NCBI RefSeq assembly: GCF_055900595.2
Contig: NZ_CM148325.1
Reading direction: 5' to 3' (one strand)
Length of the DNA stretch: 64,000 bases
Below, one piece after another: positions 3,648 to 31,659 of this stretch. The notes beneath the pieces were generated by a model, which had not been told where the DNA came from, did no database searches, and saw only the letters and a list, made by a program, of their open reading frames with translations. A program made the position numbers and the translations under genes. The number at the start of each line of letters is the position of its first letter. Positions within the stretch are counted from its first letter, which is position 1.

Positions 3648-4069
3648 CCTCGCGCATACAGCCGGGCAGTGACGTCATCGTCTGCGCGGAAATGGACGAA
3701 CAGTGGGGCTATGTCGGGGCTAAATCGCGCCAGCGCTGGCTGTTTTACGCGTATGACAGGCTCCGGAAGACGGTTGTTGCGCACGTATTCGGTGAACGCA
3801 CTATGGCGACGCTGGGGCGTCTTATGAGCCTGCTGTCACCCTTTGACGTGGTGATATGGATGACGGATGGCTGGCCGCTGTATGAATCCCGCCTGAAGGG
3901 AAAGCTGCACGTAATCAGCAAGCGATATACGCAGCGAATTGAGCGGCATAACCTGAATCTGAGGCAGCACCTGGCACGGCTGGGACGGAAGTCGCTGTCG
4001 TTCTCAAAATCGGTGGAGCTGCATGACAAAGTCATCGGGCATTATCTGAACATAAAACACTATCAATAA
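3566..4069 (+). CDS. insB: IS1 InsB (transposase made as an InsAB' fusion by -1 frameshift)
   Basis: 167-aa ORF overlapping the insA 3' end in the -1 frame, the standard IS1 arrangement. Confidence 0.9.
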
Positions 4070-26532: not shown

Positions 26533-26847
26533 ATGTCAGCGATACAGGGGATTGAAGGGGTTATCAGCCAGTTACAGGCTACGGCGATGAGTGCGCGTGC
26601 ACAGGAATCACTGCCACAACCGACCATTAGTTTTGCCGGGCAGCTGCACGCCGCGCTCGATCGCATAAGCGATACACAAACAGCCGCCCGCACGCAGGCA
26701 GAAAAATTCACCCTCGGTGAACCCGGCGTGGCGTTAAACGATGTGATGACCGATATGCAAAAAGCCTCAGTTTCTATGCAAATGGGGATTCAGGTGCGTA
26801 ATAAGCTGGTGGCGGCGTATCAGGAAGTGATGTCCATGCAGGTGTAG
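26533..26847 (+). CDS. fliE: Flagellar hook-basal body protein FliE
   Basis: Start trimmed to [10 protein letters not shown]... (104 aa). Confidence 0.9.
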
Positions 26848-27179
26848 GTTTTGTAACCTGTTGGTAATTACATCCCATCTGCCCGCGTGGGCATGGATGG
26901 GGCAAACTCACCCTATTTCTGGTTTAAAATGGATACCTGATCCTGAAAGTTTTCTGCCATCCACGATCCGTAAACGCGATAACATGTTTTGTCTTCGCTT
27001 TGCTCATAGGAAGAGTGAACTCTTTTGTTAGCCTGGGGTTCCTTCTGATCATTATTGTTCCTGCCTTTATCTCTTGCCACGCCAGAGCCCCCTGGATACA
27101 CATACACCAGGATGAAAACGGTGAGTTGTGTTCAAACTGTAGTACAATTCTCTCCAGTATGAACAGGAAAGAATATGCT

Positions 27180-27512
27180 ATGAACCCTTATATTTATCTT
27201 GGTGGCGCAATACTTGCAGAGGTCATTGGTACAACCTTAATGAAGTTTTCAGAGGGGTTTACACGGTTATGGCCCTCTGTTGGCACAATTATTTGCTATT
27301 GTGCATCATTTTGGTTATTAGCTCAGACACTGGCTTATATACCTACAGGGATTGCTTATGCTATCTGGTCAGGAGTCGGTATCGTTCTGATTAGTTTGCT
27401 TTCCTGGGGATTTTTTGGCCAACGACTGGACTTGCCAGCCATCATAGGCATGATGTTGATTTGTGCCGGTGTGTTAGTCATTAACTTGTTGTCACGAAGC
27501 GCACCGCATTAA
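27180..27512 (+). CDS. emrE: Small multidrug resistance (SMR) efflux transporter EmrE
   Basis: 110-aa four-TM protein MNPYIYLGGAILAEVIGTTLMKFSEGF... with the conserved Glu14; ATG at 27180 inside a longer track ORF. Confidence 0.9.
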   Translation: MNPYIYLGGAILAEVIGTTLMKFSEGFTRLWPSVGTIICYCASFWLLAQTLAYIPTGIAYAIWSGVGIVLISLLSWGFFGQRLDLPAIIGMMLICAGVLVINLLSRSAPH

Positions 27513-27680
27513 AAAATAATCATCCTTGAGATAACAGGAATCTGATTTGTGCATATTATGGCTAATGTTCGGGGCAACTTTATAATTATGATTGCATTTG
27601 CGCGATCATTGCGCCTTTTTGCATAATGAGATCAATGCACATCAAATAAAATAACGATAGGTCACAACAAAGAGGTTTTT

Positions 27681-28232
27681 ATGAAAAAACTTATCGTTTC
27701 AAGTGTATTGGCATTCATAACATTTTCTGCGCAGGCCGCAGCATTTCAGGTCACTAGTAATGAAATAAAAACAGGAGAGCAACTTACAACGTCTCATGTA
27801 TTTTCTGGATTTGGGTGTGAGGGGGGTAATACATCGCCCTCATTAACCTGGTCTGGTGCTCCAGAAGGCACCAAAAGCTTTGCCGTAACTGTGTATGATC
27901 CAGATGCGCCTACAGGCAGCGGATGGTGGCACTGGACTGTTGCTAATATTCCAGCAACGGTAACATATTTGCCCGCTGATGCAGGAAGACGTGATGGTAC
28001 AAAACTTCCGACTGGTGCTGTCCAAGGCCGAAATGATTTTGGCTATGCGGGATTTGGTGGAGCATGTCCTCCCAAAGGAGATAAACCCCATCATTACCAG
28101 TTTAAAATATGGGCTCTAAAAACTGATAAGATTCCTGTGGATTCTAATTCCAGCGGAGCGTTAGTTGGTTATATGCTTAATGCCAATAAAATTGCAACCG
28201 CTGAGATAATACCCGTTTATGAGGTAAAGTAG
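27681..28232 (+). CDS. ybcL: Periplasmic PEBP/RKIP-family protein YbcL
   Basis: 183-aa ORF with signal peptide; matches YbcL. Confidence 0.85.
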   Translation: MKKLIVSSVLAFITFSAQAAAFQVTSNEIKTGEQLTTSHVFSGFGCEGGNTSPSLTWSGAPEGTKSFAVTVYDPDAPTGSGWWHWTVANIPATVTYLPADAGRRDGTKLPTGAVQGRNDFGYAGFGGACPPKGDKPHHYQFKIWALKTDKIPVDSNSSGALVGYMLNANKIATAEIIPVYEVK

Positions 28233-28241
28233 GATAAGAGT

Positions 28242-29039
28242 ATGCTGGCAAAAGATAGGACTAACCTAAAGATTGAAGAAATACGGATGCATAAACATCA
28301 TGAGATTCACAGGGTTAAGCCTCTTATGCCAGCTTTATGTCGTATCCGTCAGGGAAAAAAAGTTATCAATTGGGAGACGCATAGTCTAACTGTTGATAAT
28401 AATCAGATAATATTATTTCCCTGTGGATATGAATTTTATATTGCGAATTACCCAGAAGCAGGTCTTTATCTTGCAGAAATGCTTTATTATCCCATTGATC
28501 TAATTGAAAAGTTCCAAAATCTTTATGCGATAACCGATCAAATTCGTAACACGACAGGTTTCTGCTTACCTCAGAATCCCGAGTTAATATATTGTTGGGA
28601 GCAACTAAAAACATCTATTTCCCGAGGCTTCTCAACGCAAATTCAGGAACACTTAGCAATGGGCGTTCTACTTTCATTAGGAGCACATCATGTTAATTGT
28701 TTACTTTTATCAGATAGTAAACAATCATTAATAAGTCGTTGTTATAACCTAATGCTATCCGAACCTGGAACAAAATGGACAGCAAACAAGGTAGCGAGAT
28801 ATCTCTACATTTCTGTTTCCACATTGCATCGCCGTCTGGCAAGCGAGGGAGTAAGTTTTCAAAGTATATTGGACGACGTGAGGTTAAATAATGCGTTGTC
28901 TGCTATACAAACGACAGTAAAACCCATCAGCGAGATTGCCAGGGAAAATGGTTACAAGTGTCCTTCTCGTTTTACTGAAAGGTTCCATAATCGTTTTAAG
29001 ATAACACCAAGAGAGCTAAGAAAAGCGTCCAGAGAGTAA
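28242..29039 (+). CDS. ybcM: AraC-family transcriptional regulator YbcM
   Basis: 265-aa ORF with C-terminal AraC-type HTH. Confidence 0.82.
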
Positions 29040-29330
29040 AAGTATTTTATGAAGGAGCAACAGCATCGATTTTTATTTTAGAAAATAAATACGGCATACT
29101 CAACCTATTGGAGCCTGAACAATCCGGTGACTTCTGCGCTAATCGGGGACGTTTATAAGCACATATAATTGATATTATCGTCCTCCATCACAATTTCAGA
29201 AATGCACGTGTGATTTTTTTGCATCCGGCGTTTGGACTATGTGGAGTTCAAGAGTGGGAAAGTTACAAGAGGTTGAGGGGATAATTAAAGGGATGCTTAT
29301 GACATTAGATATCCGGATAGGTACGGATAT

Positions 29331-29390
29331 CGTTGTTATTAAATCTAGTTTGTTGTTATTAAATCTAGTTCGTTGTTATTAAATCTGGTT
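29331..29390. repeat. Three tandem copies of a 20-bp unit (YGTTGTTATTAAATCTRGTT)
   Basis: Direct head-to-tail copies at 29331-29350, 29351-29370 and 29371-29390, differing at one or two positions each. Confidence 0.9.
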
Positions 29391-30019
29391 TATACGTTAA
29401 GATGCAACTACAGCAGAAATTGCCACTGTTAATTTTTTCATCGTGAGCCCTTTTATTTGAACTATTATTTAAAAATGATGTCACTGCACTATAAATATTC
29501 ATCCAATCAATGAGATTATTTCAAGATGTAAGTTTTAGTTTCTCATTTAAATTGTGAAGTAGATCCCTATCTTTATCTGAACTGTTTCTATTGCACACAA
29601 TGCATGACTATTTTGTGAACGAATATAAATTTGGTAGTCAAATTATATTAAAGGTTGTTATTTATGATTGACTCATAATTTATTTATTTAATTTAAATAG
29701 CCTAGAAATAACCATGGAAATTATTTGCATGATGTTTGTTTGGATTTATTAATGTAATTGAGGTGGTTTTATTTAATACGCAATATAGCGCCGCTTGATA
29801 TTAGTTCTATTTTTTTTGCGTAAGATAGATGAGACAAACAGAGACGCATAATGGTTTGCAAGGCTCTAATACTTTGATGTTGAGGATGTGATGGGGCATG
29901 TACGGGGCATAGTACAATGATGTCCATGCTGGTGTAGATAATCTCCAGGCTTATCCGGTGCGCCGTAAAACCCCGTCCTTCAGGGCAGGGATATAAGGCG
30001 CGGTTTTCCACCTGACCAG

Positions 30020-30443
30020 GTGTTTGCTGTTGTTCAATGTATTGGCGGATGACGGATATTGGCGCACCTCCGCAGCTACTGGCAAAATAGCCAGCACTCC
30101 ACAAAACGCCTTTGTAGTAATACCTGACTGCAATATCTGGTCGATCTCGTCGCAGTCACCTACCCGATACGCCTTTGAGGCTGTTTACCAGACTGGATAT
30201 CGCCAGTTTGGGAGGATAGTTAATTAACAAATGGACGTGATCTGGTTCGCCATCCATTTCAACCAGTTCAGCTTCAAAATCAGCGCATACATTTGAAAAG
30301 TAAGCGCGTAGTTTTTCTGTCGCGTCATGGTCAAAAATCTGACGTCGGTATCTGGTGACAAAGACCAGGTGAACATGCATCAGGAAAACACAATGCCTTC
30401 CACGCCGGATATCGGTTTCTTTTTTCACAGACCAAAGTATCAT
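30020..30443 (-). pseudogene. tnpA: IS200/IS605 TnpA (HuH Y1 transposase) interrupted by an in-frame TGA after codon 95
   Basis: N-terminal 95 aa carry the HuH motif (HVHLVF); TGA at 30156-30158; the same frame continues ...YYYKGVLWSAGYFASSCGGAPISVIRQYIEQQ (conserved TnpA C-terminus). Confidence 0.75.
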
Positions 30444-30450
30444 TTGGCCT

Positions 30451-31659
30451 GTGAAACGACTACAGGCATTTAAATTCCAGTTAAGACCAGGTGATCAACA
30501 GGAGTGTGAAATGAGGCGCTTCGCAGGCGCATGTCGTTTCGTTTTCAATCGTGCTCTGGCGCTTCAGAATGAGAATCATGAGGCCGGTAATAAATACATC
30601 CCTTACGGGAAAATGGCTTCCTGGCTGGTTGAGTGGAAAAATGCCACTGAAACGCAATGGCTTAAAGATTCTCCCTCACAGCCATTGCAACAGTCACTGA
30701 AAGACCTTGAGCGGGCTTACAAAAACTTCTTCCGGAAGCGGGCTGCTTTTCCCCGATTCAAAAAGCGGGGACAGAATGATGCATTCCGCTACCCGCAGGG
30801 CGTTAAGCTCGATCAGGAAAACAGCCGTATTTTTCTGCCGAAACTGGGCTGGATGCGTTACCGCAATAGCCGTCAGGTCACGGGTGTTGTGAAAAATGTC
30901 ACTGTCAGCCAGTCCTGCGGTAAGTGGTACATCAGTATTCAGACAGAAAGTGAAGTATCCACTCCGGTTCACCCTTCAGCATCAATGGTCGGGCTGGATG
31001 CTGGCGTGGCTAAACTCGCCACGCTGTCAGATGGCACAGTCTTTGAGCCTGTAAACAGTTTTCAGAAAAACCAGAAGACGCTGGCGAGACTTCAGCGACA
31101 GTTAAGCCGCAAGGTCAAATTCAGCAACAACTGGCAGAAGCAGAAACGCAAAATACAGCGACTGCATTCCCGTATCGCAAATATCCGCAGGGACTACCTT
31201 CACAAAGTCACAACGACCGTCAGCAAAAACCACGCAATGATAGTCATTGAGGATTTGAAGGTCAGCAACATGTCAAAGTCAGCAGCGGGTACGGTCAGCC
31301 AGCCGGGGCGCAATGTCCGGGCAAAATCAGGTTTAAACCGTTCGATACTGGATCAGGGCTGGTATGAAATGCGCCGCCAGCTTGAGTACAAGCAGCTCTG
31401 GCGTGGCGGTCAGGTGCTTGCTGTTCCGCCAGCGTACACAAGCCAGCGTTGCGCGTGCTGTGGTCATACAGCGAAAGAAAATCGCCTGTCACAAAGTCAA
31501 TTCAGATGCCAGGTATGTGGATATACAGCGAACGCCGATGTAAACGGCGCTCGTAACATTTTAGCGGCGGGGCACGCCGTTCTTGCCTGTGGAGAGATGG
31601 TGCAGTCAGGCCGCCCGTTGAAGCAGGAACCCACCGAAATGATTCAGGCGACAGCCTGA
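30451..31659 (+). CDS. tnpB: TnpB (IS605 OrfB) RuvC-like RNA-guided endonuclease, apparently intact
   Basis: 402-aa ORF with RuvC-I (GLDAG), RuvC-II (IVIEDLKV), zinc finger (CACCGH...CQVCG) and RuvC-III ([10 protein letters not shown]). GTG start at 30451; an ATG at 30511 is the alternative. Confidence 0.85.

Follow-up and report, generated by a model that had tools for sequence, protein, structure and literature searches.

The palindrome downstream of fliE in Escherichia coli as a probable relic of a decayed phage integrase gene next to a predicted attachment site

The palindrome between fliE and emrE

The window analyzed here, a stretch of 64,000 nucleotides of contig NZ_CM148325.1, has its closest match in E. 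coli strain E2863 with 99.9% identity. It contains fliE, a palindrome shortly downstream of it, and then emrE, ybcL and ybcM. In positions of the window, these features are:

26533..26847, + strand: fliE, 104 codons and a TAG stop codon (open reading frame list, E2863 annotation and attP alignment)
26874-26879 and 26896-26901, + strand: outer stem of the palindrome, 6 bp, CCCATC/GATGGG (read from the sequence)
26880-26884 and 26889-26893, + strand: inner stem, 5 bp, TGCCC/GGGCA (read from the sequence)
26885-26888, + strand: loop, GCGT
26894-26895, + strand: bulge of 2 nt, TG
27104..29779, + strand: DLP12-like block, emrE-ybcL-ybcM and flanks (local blastn against DLP12 of W3110; E2863 annotation)
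27180-27512, + strand: emrE
27681-28232, + strand: ybcL
28242-29039, + strand: ybcM

The palindrome, CCCATCTGCCCGCGTGGGCATGGATGGG, extends over 26874-26901 of the + strand, starts 27 nt 3' of the fliE stop codon and occurs a single time in the 64-kb window searched. With a stem of 11 bp in total, the RNA of 26870-26905 has a minimum free energy of -18.5 kcal/mol on the + strand and -18.4 kcal/mol on the - strand. Compared to dinucleotide shuffles this gives z-scores of -2.3 (+) and -2.8 (-), and on each strand 5 of 200 shuffles fold equally well. Within its 101-nt context the + strand fold reaches a z-score of only -0.9, and in 36-nt windows 19 distinct sites on the + strand and 24 on the - strand of the 64 kb fold with -18.5 kcal/mol or lower. 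The palindrome is real, but its fold is only modestly unusual and not rare. Measured against shuffled controls, on which the sequence-only reading had let the significance of the fold depend, the hairpin is borderline: it lies at the level of about 2.5% as one pre-selected site, and is unremarkable for a scan of 64 kb. There is no T-run after the palindrome on either strand, a scan for the terminator consensus is empty at the site, and the bases directly 3' of the stem, GCAAACTCACCC on the + strand and ATGTAATTACC on the - strand, form no U-rich tract. Moreover, no Rfam covariance model matches over the hairpin at E <= 10. The earlier description of a GC-rich stem-loop that lacks a T-run and is not a classical intrinsic terminator agrees with both the folding energy and the terminator scan, which calls nothing here; this observation is confirmed, whereas its interpretation is supported only in part. 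The same consensus scan gave a terminator-like hairpin with a T-rich tail at 26684-26701 of the - strand, antisense inside the fliE coding sequence, which is probably due to chance.

The integrase remnant and the predicted attachment site at the 3' end of fliE

Between fliE and emrE the following further features can be assigned:

26828..26867: predicted att core region of attL (left limit at the divergence of phage and host, right limit approximate)
26846-26859: inverted repeat AGGTT-TTGT-AACCT in the att core
26868..27151, - strand: remnant of an integrase pseudogene, presumably intG of K-12 (tblastn and PGAP; its tail reaches 26868)
27002-26889, - strand: integrase residues 386-423 (tblastn)
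27088(27151)-26978, - strand: integrase residues 239-277, possibly from 210 (tblastn)
26983..26984: end of the homology to K-12-type genomes, between GATAAC and ATGTTT, a lineage-specific deletion junction inside the integrase remnant

Read on the minus strand, the palindrome spans about the last 12 codons of the integrase remnant, which are ...P-S-M-P and then, frameshifted, T-R-A-D-G-M-stop, whereas the K-12-type reading is E-F-A-P-S-M-P-H-A-V-R-S-D-V-I. PGAP/RefSeq label this DNA in many strains as 'integrase, partial, missing N-terminus', located on the minus strand and ending few bases from fliE. We take it to be intG, the K-12 name of the integrase pseudogene adjoining fliE, for which the RefSeq records say only 'integrase, partial'. 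An assignment of the fragment to the N-terminal arm domain of a P4-type integrase was rejected, since annotation and tblastn place it at the C-terminal end. When metagenomes were scanned with the palindrome's 3' arm and adjacent bases, 120 contigs were detected, mostly with fliE-linked copies, and in about 30 metagenome contigs the same sequence forms the end of an intact gene for a 431-aa protein ending with LNQKLSEFAPSMPHAVGSDGY and the stop codon. This protein has the Pfam domains Arm-DNA-bind_2 (5.8e-25) and Phage_integrase (1.4e-18), and shares 95% identity with the integrase of Enterobacter phage CobraSix, 86% with that of Escherichia phage IdasGreatGrand, and 67-70% with those of phiP27, CharmingMan, YP3 and many Stx phages annotated as intR. 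CobraSix and IdasGreatGrand have a lambdoid gene order, with excisionase (xis), integrase, and non-coding DNA containing attP. Intact integrases searched with tblastn against the window gave E-values of 7e-15 to 1e-23, and about 110 codons are missing between the two fragments, near 26984. By homology, 26874-26901 belongs to a decayed tyrosine integrase gene of the IntR type and forms part of its 3' end.

In 2594 of 5370 matching genomes fliE is followed by emrE-ybcL as in the window. In the remaining matching genomes including K-12/W3110, the homology ends at 26983 (query position 483-484), and W3110 retains only integrase residues 383-431, directly after fliE (tblastn). Since the homology breaks only at 26983/26984, the hairpin is located within DNA shared with K-12, and since the two integrase fragments flank approximately 26984, the break is a deletion inside the pseudogene. 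The comparison to K-12, which the sequence-only reading had proposed, thus places the hairpin in common DNA that is itself old phage DNA. The suggested boundary of an emrE cassette does not hold, as the homology to K-12 continues for 82 bp beyond the hairpin up to 26983, where the break is an internal deletion of the integrase pseudogene and not an insertion edge. The idea of a junction remnant survives in spirit, as a relic of a mobile-DNA junction, but not as the edge of the emrE cassette or of a lineage-specific insert.

The attachment site was derived from an alignment on the integrase-sense strand of the window, W3110, ST69, two phages and two metagenome copies. All aligned copies remain collinear across the int 3' end and stop codon and for about 60 nt beyond. 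After the int stop codon follow the inverted repeat AGGTT-N4-AACCT in E. coli and IdasGreatGrand, or TTAGGTTA-N2-TAACCTAA in CobraSix, and then ...TGCATG..CATCAC, and exactly at ...CATCAC the phage and bacterial copies part, with the phage P arm on the one side and fliE on the other. On the fliE strand, the common stretch GTGATG(TCC)ATGCAGGTGTAG comprises the final six codons of fliE with its stop, GTG ATG TCC ATG CAG GTG TAG, which are also present in the phage attP. Because attP carries a replacement fliE 3' end, these phages can be expected to integrate at the 3' end of fliE; and as the core is collinear and the copies diverge only on one of its sides, attL followed by the int end would lie right of fliE. 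Window 26828-27151 is therefore read as attL plus what is left of the integrase gene of a prophage with the fliE 3' end as its target. A second copy of the core (attR) is not present in the window. The UTI89/STLEFF29-type alleles match IdasGreatGrand almost perfectly and share with it a segment of 11 bp that is absent from the K-12-type and window-type alleles. The fliE 3' end is a predicted attachment site still used by present-day phages, and for this site living phage relatives are identified. In the searchable literature, no report on fliE as attachment site and nothing relevant on intG/fliE, CobraSix, IdasGreatGrand or DUF3596 was found.

Two chromosomal loci, 4857-5180 of L004 (E. coli T28R, NZ_CP142708.1) and 14142-14460 of L029, show an attP-like P-O-P' arrangement, in which a phage P arm including the P-arm doublet described below is joined via the core to the resident int remnant and replaces fliE. 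In T28R the P arm also carries a gene for a UmuD-like S24 peptidase as in CobraSix, and on the left side the fli operon is truncated beside IS1. Judged by their arrangement, these P-O-P'-like junctions are as expected if a phage had integrated into the resident attL.

The segment of 137 bp 3' of fliE is found in 5308 of 5426 complete E. coli genomes (~98%), normally once in each. A contig scan with a conserved downstream 29-mer gave only two stray contigs labelled Collinsella and Nocardioides, which are probably E. coli contamination. Identity of the segment between E. coli genomes is 80-99%, which is unusually diverse and, to our knowledge, exceeds the level expected for E. coli core DNA. At 26849-26983 several discrete alleles occur, with an 11-bp indel matching phage IdasGreatGrand, and the variation in the 137-bp segment is concentrated between att core and doublet. 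This diversity may stem from repeated integration and excision of phages, or from recombination with phages that enter the cell.

Right of the integrase remnant, 27104-29779 is collinear with the cryptic lambdoid prophage DLP12 of K-12 with 82-92% identity, and the orientation of the block with respect to int is that found in DLP12. The matches comprise emrE, ybcL, ybcM and two further segments, with identities given as 92%, 89%, 82% and 82%; the further segments match the 3' end of quuD, and the end of the porin gene nmpC with the spacer toward essD. Compared to DLP12, ybcK and the part from ybcN to rusA are missing from the window block. On the basis of these matches the 'emrE cassette' is best read as a putative second, paralogous lambdoid prophage remnant. 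Comparison to E2863 places an IS200/IS605-family tnpA fragment between ybcM and yedK (29769-31659), together with an intact gene for a TnpB/InsQ-type RNA-guided endonuclease of 402 aa (30451-31659). The palindrome was also considered as an end hairpin of such an IS200/IS605 element and rejected, since lineages lacking that IS have it as well and since it shares homology with int. In O157:H7 strain E32511 (L134, 748-935) an intact gene for the T3SS effector EspR4 (espR4, leucine-rich repeat) lies right of the int remnant, and in K-12 (W3110, L001 4697-5825) a frameshifted DUF5503 pseudogene is located at the same relative position; if related, both are possible prophage cargo at the fliE site. 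The variable fliE-yedK region would accordingly consist of the differently decayed remains of one or more prophages targeting the fliE 3' end, which include intG, the emrE-ybcL-ybcM block and probably neighbours.

The TGCCCCA doublet as candidate arm-type site

The 3' arm of the palindrome on the + strand, GGGGCATGGATGGGGCA, encodes A-P-S-M-P and is invariant in all E. coli alleles and phages examined, except that one G is missing in the window, in metagenome contig L094 and in strain 2547. In the int-sense direction the intact 3' arm is a doublet, TGCCCCA-TCCA-TGCCCCA, with a period of 11 nt. The copies of this doublet in the window and across the core are:

26888..26904, - strand: degraded doublet TGCCCCA-TCCA-TGCCCA, one C lost from the second copy, candidate P'-arm sites
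CobraSix, at 3962: doublet across the core
IdasGreatGrand, at 3962: doublet across the core
metagenome contig L038: doublet across the core
CharmingMan: two doublets across the core, with a different core and a flank that by eye has no evident similarity to that of CobraSix

The pattern TG(C/T)CCCA-N4-TG(C/T)CCCA is found 33-63 nt before the stop codon in six of six phage int genes inspected, which share 67-95% identity. The doublet is retained despite differing peptides (FAPSMPH, YVPMMSH, FAPQMPQ, FAPSLPQ and SVPYMPH), and the four-fold-degenerate third positions within it, in GCC/GTC, CCA and CCC/TCC, are invariant. Furthermore, all four sequences in attP form harbor further doublets of like orientation on the far side of the core, 200-250 nt downstream. 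Since the doublet recurs in six int genes as well as across the attP core, it is probably an arm-type site to which Int binds, as far as can be told from the sequence pattern. Past the doublet, the C-terminal tails of the integrases of L130-L133, L128 and L129 are fully divergent (HAVGSDGY, HSHQSDTRDLLKSVG, QSKVSAQ, HRARL), and this tail divergence of related integrases accompanies different att cores. The tail codons therefore appear as if they were shaped by the overlapping attP sequence and not by protein function.

A wider reading combines several of these points: TGCCCCA doublets would be the arm sites of the whole IntR-type family, the C-terminal peptide (A/V)-P-x-(M/L)-(P/S) of int would be set by this DNA-site constraint as an overlapping code, and the fliE attL relic, present in ~98% of E. 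coli, would still serve as landing pad for phages such as IdasGreatGrand. We propose this combination tentatively and consider it somewhat less likely than not. If the landing-pad reading is true, repeated integration would explain both the hybrid junctions of T28R and L029 and the allelic diversity of the 137-bp segment. The doublet can serve as a candidate recognition motif, open to testing, for a widespread family of integrases to which those of Stx phages belong, and an arm-type motif could help in the prediction of attP sites and in the design of integration tools.

Variation and origin of the hairpin

In contrast to the fixed 3' arm, the 5' arm occurs in E. coli in several alleles, CCCATCTGCCC (window type), CCGATCTCACC (K-12 type), CCAATCTCACC and CCGATCCCACA. 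The fold of the hairpin ranges from -6.6 to -19.3 kcal/mol across the alleles. Applied to 18 distinct alleles, the structure of the window is paired in 66.5% of the cells, and no pair is altered on both sides. The metagenome search pattern fixed the 3' arm, so that compensating changes in this arm are unsampled in the metagenome set, and a structure-pair shuffle control was uninformative due to the invariant 3' arm. An ancestral register, CCATCC/GGATGG and CCCAC/GTGGG, folds with -18.5 kcal/mol in CobraSix-type genes and is 90% paired across the alleles, compared to 25-53% in slid controls; several C-to-U changes retain G-U pairs of this register on the fliE-sense strand. This pairing is a mild hint of weak selection on RNA, but would follow just as well from a bias toward transitions in a C-rich arm. 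The homologous position of phiP27, CharmingMan, YP3 and an Stx1 phage lacks a hairpin, and an RNA structure common to the whole family was rejected, as the hairpin is not conserved in distant integrases. The window-type allele is present in 1009 of 5426 complete genomes (~19%) with 95.6-97.8% identity to the 44-nt query. No complete genome is identical over 44 nt because the window has GGG where others have GGGG: at 26889-26891 the window reads GGG, and the best matches among 5,426 complete genomes as well as nearly all metagenome copies read GGGG, with the best identity to the window being 97.8% over 44 nt and 99.3% over 137 nt. The shortened run, which costs the second TGCCCCA repeat one C, is either a strain-specific deletion of 1 nt or a homopolymer sequencing error. 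Among the metagenome contigs, the window-type allele accompanies the emrE-type junction in 11 cases and a longer int remnant of K-12-like form in 8; the allele is unlinked to the emrE arrangement.

Window-type and K-12-type alleles have a derived T at 26880 in common; their differences are G>C at 26876 and CA>GC at 26881-26882. Each of these three window-type changes raises the complementarity of 5' and 3' arm, in a shifted register, which is suggestive of selection or templated mutation over drift. A template switch at a quasipalindrome, with the 3' arm serving as template for the 5' arm, could have generated the strong window-type hairpin, and would be compatible with the palindrome being an integrase relic. 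The three changes relative to the K-12 type indeed make the 5' arm an exact complement of the 3' arm, and no intermediate alleles occur among 126 metagenome copies. However, a single templated patch would also insert the 2-nt bulge sequence, and two patches are therefore needed. In addition, the site was chosen for its good pairing, which introduces an ascertainment bias, and the whole 137-bp segment is highly polymorphic (80-99% identity). We regard a template switch as rather unlikely.

The palindrome might also be a phage element that has been retained, be it a terminator of int, an RNase III site for retroregulation like lambda sib, or a protein-binding palindrome of attP. The hairpin that CobraSix-type intact genes hold at the same place speaks for this, and so does UUAUUAAUUAU, which comes next after the hairpin on the int-sense strand. 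Yet the structure is weak in IdasGreatGrand and absent in the four more distant phages named above, its inner stem is broken in some intact alleles, e.g., in a V-to-T variant with -13.6 kcal/mol, and the terminator scan of CobraSix gave no call at the hairpin. As the hairpin is located on the int side of the core, a sib-like switch that depends on the integration state does not apply. A retained phage element appears improbable.

Alternatively, the hairpin might act today at the 3' end of the fliE transcript, as a weak or factor-assisted terminator, or as a stem-loop that blocks exonucleases after Rho-dependent termination and insulates emrE. Its position 27 nt past the fliE stop codon on the sense strand, its energy of -18.5 kcal/mol, and the scan, which gave no canonical terminator for the interval from fliE to emrE, fit such a role; moreover, the original DNA downstream of fliE has been displaced by phage integration, and in most alleles the pairing is partly kept with G-U-preserving changes on the fliE-sense strand. 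Against it stand the missing U-tract and the energies of -6.6 to -19.3 kcal/mol between alleles while fliE is conserved: five of six sampled fliE-annotated strains with other alleles have the same FliE protein (WP_001274299.1) as the window-type strain E2863. Furthermore, no pair is changed on both sides, the strong allele is not tied to a downstream emrE, and the fold in the 101-nt context is unremarkable (z = -0.9). A present-day role of the hairpin for fliE is quite improbable. The Term-seq supplementary tables searched for 3' ends do not list fliE. Although a GC-rich imperfect palindrome just 3' of a gene resembles a dispersed extragenic palindrome of the REP/BIME type, as the earlier reading had suggested, this can practically be dismissed: the palindrome is present once in the window and, with 4768 places in 4714 E. 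coli genomes, has a median of one copy per genome, and it is homologous to integrase coding sequence.

The palindrome is probably a relic of the last codons of the decayed integrase together with an arm of the attachment site, and not a dedicated element. According to this relic reading, a lambdoid phage with an IntR-type integrase (Arm-DNA-bind_2 and Phage_integrase) would once have integrated into the 3' end of fliE. With the last six codons of fliE duplicated in attP, integration would rebuild fliE, and the product would have the order fliE, att core, and int 3' end pointing toward fliE. Most of the prophage would then have decayed, with the lineage of the window keeping two int fragments and the DLP12-like emrE-ybcL-ybcM. 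The 3' arm of the palindrome on the + strand would be the tandem TGCCCCA doublet, a putative P'-arm site for the arm-binding domain, whereas the 5' arm would consist of tail codons that are now non-coding and free to vary among E. coli. In ~19% of E. coli, three substitutions in the 5' arm would have led to a tighter hairpin in a new register. The hairpin presumably has no present-day function, and it can be explained without any new RNA or repeat family.

With respect to known systems, the palindrome is similar to a Rho-independent terminator in being a GC-rich stem-loop shortly after a stop codon, but differs from it by the lack of a U-tract, by the bulged stem and by not being conserved between strains. 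K-12 intG represents the same locus and the same DNA including the palindrome region, with 93% identity over 137 bp. In contrast to K-12 intG, the window has the internal deletion of ~110 codons, the extra fragment with residues 239-277, tail codons that differ by three substitutions, and the 1-nt deletion, and the hairpin of K-12 intG reaches only -12.2 kcal/mol, in the ancestral register. The locus resembles a lambda-type attL (B-O-P') in its xis-int-attP module, with int transcribed toward the junction and its 3' end abutting the core, in a short motif repeated with a spacing of ~11 nt on both sides of the core, and in the N-terminal arm-binding domain of the integrase. It differs in that the candidate arm sites lie inside the int coding sequence, in the motif TGCCCCA, which is not the lambda arm consensus, and in its target, the 3' end of a protein gene. 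Phage 21 and e14 insert in the 3' end of icd and bring a replacement 3' end with them. The predicted site described here follows the same principle, with an attP that carries the gene end and a target that stays intact after integration, and the target in this case is fliE.
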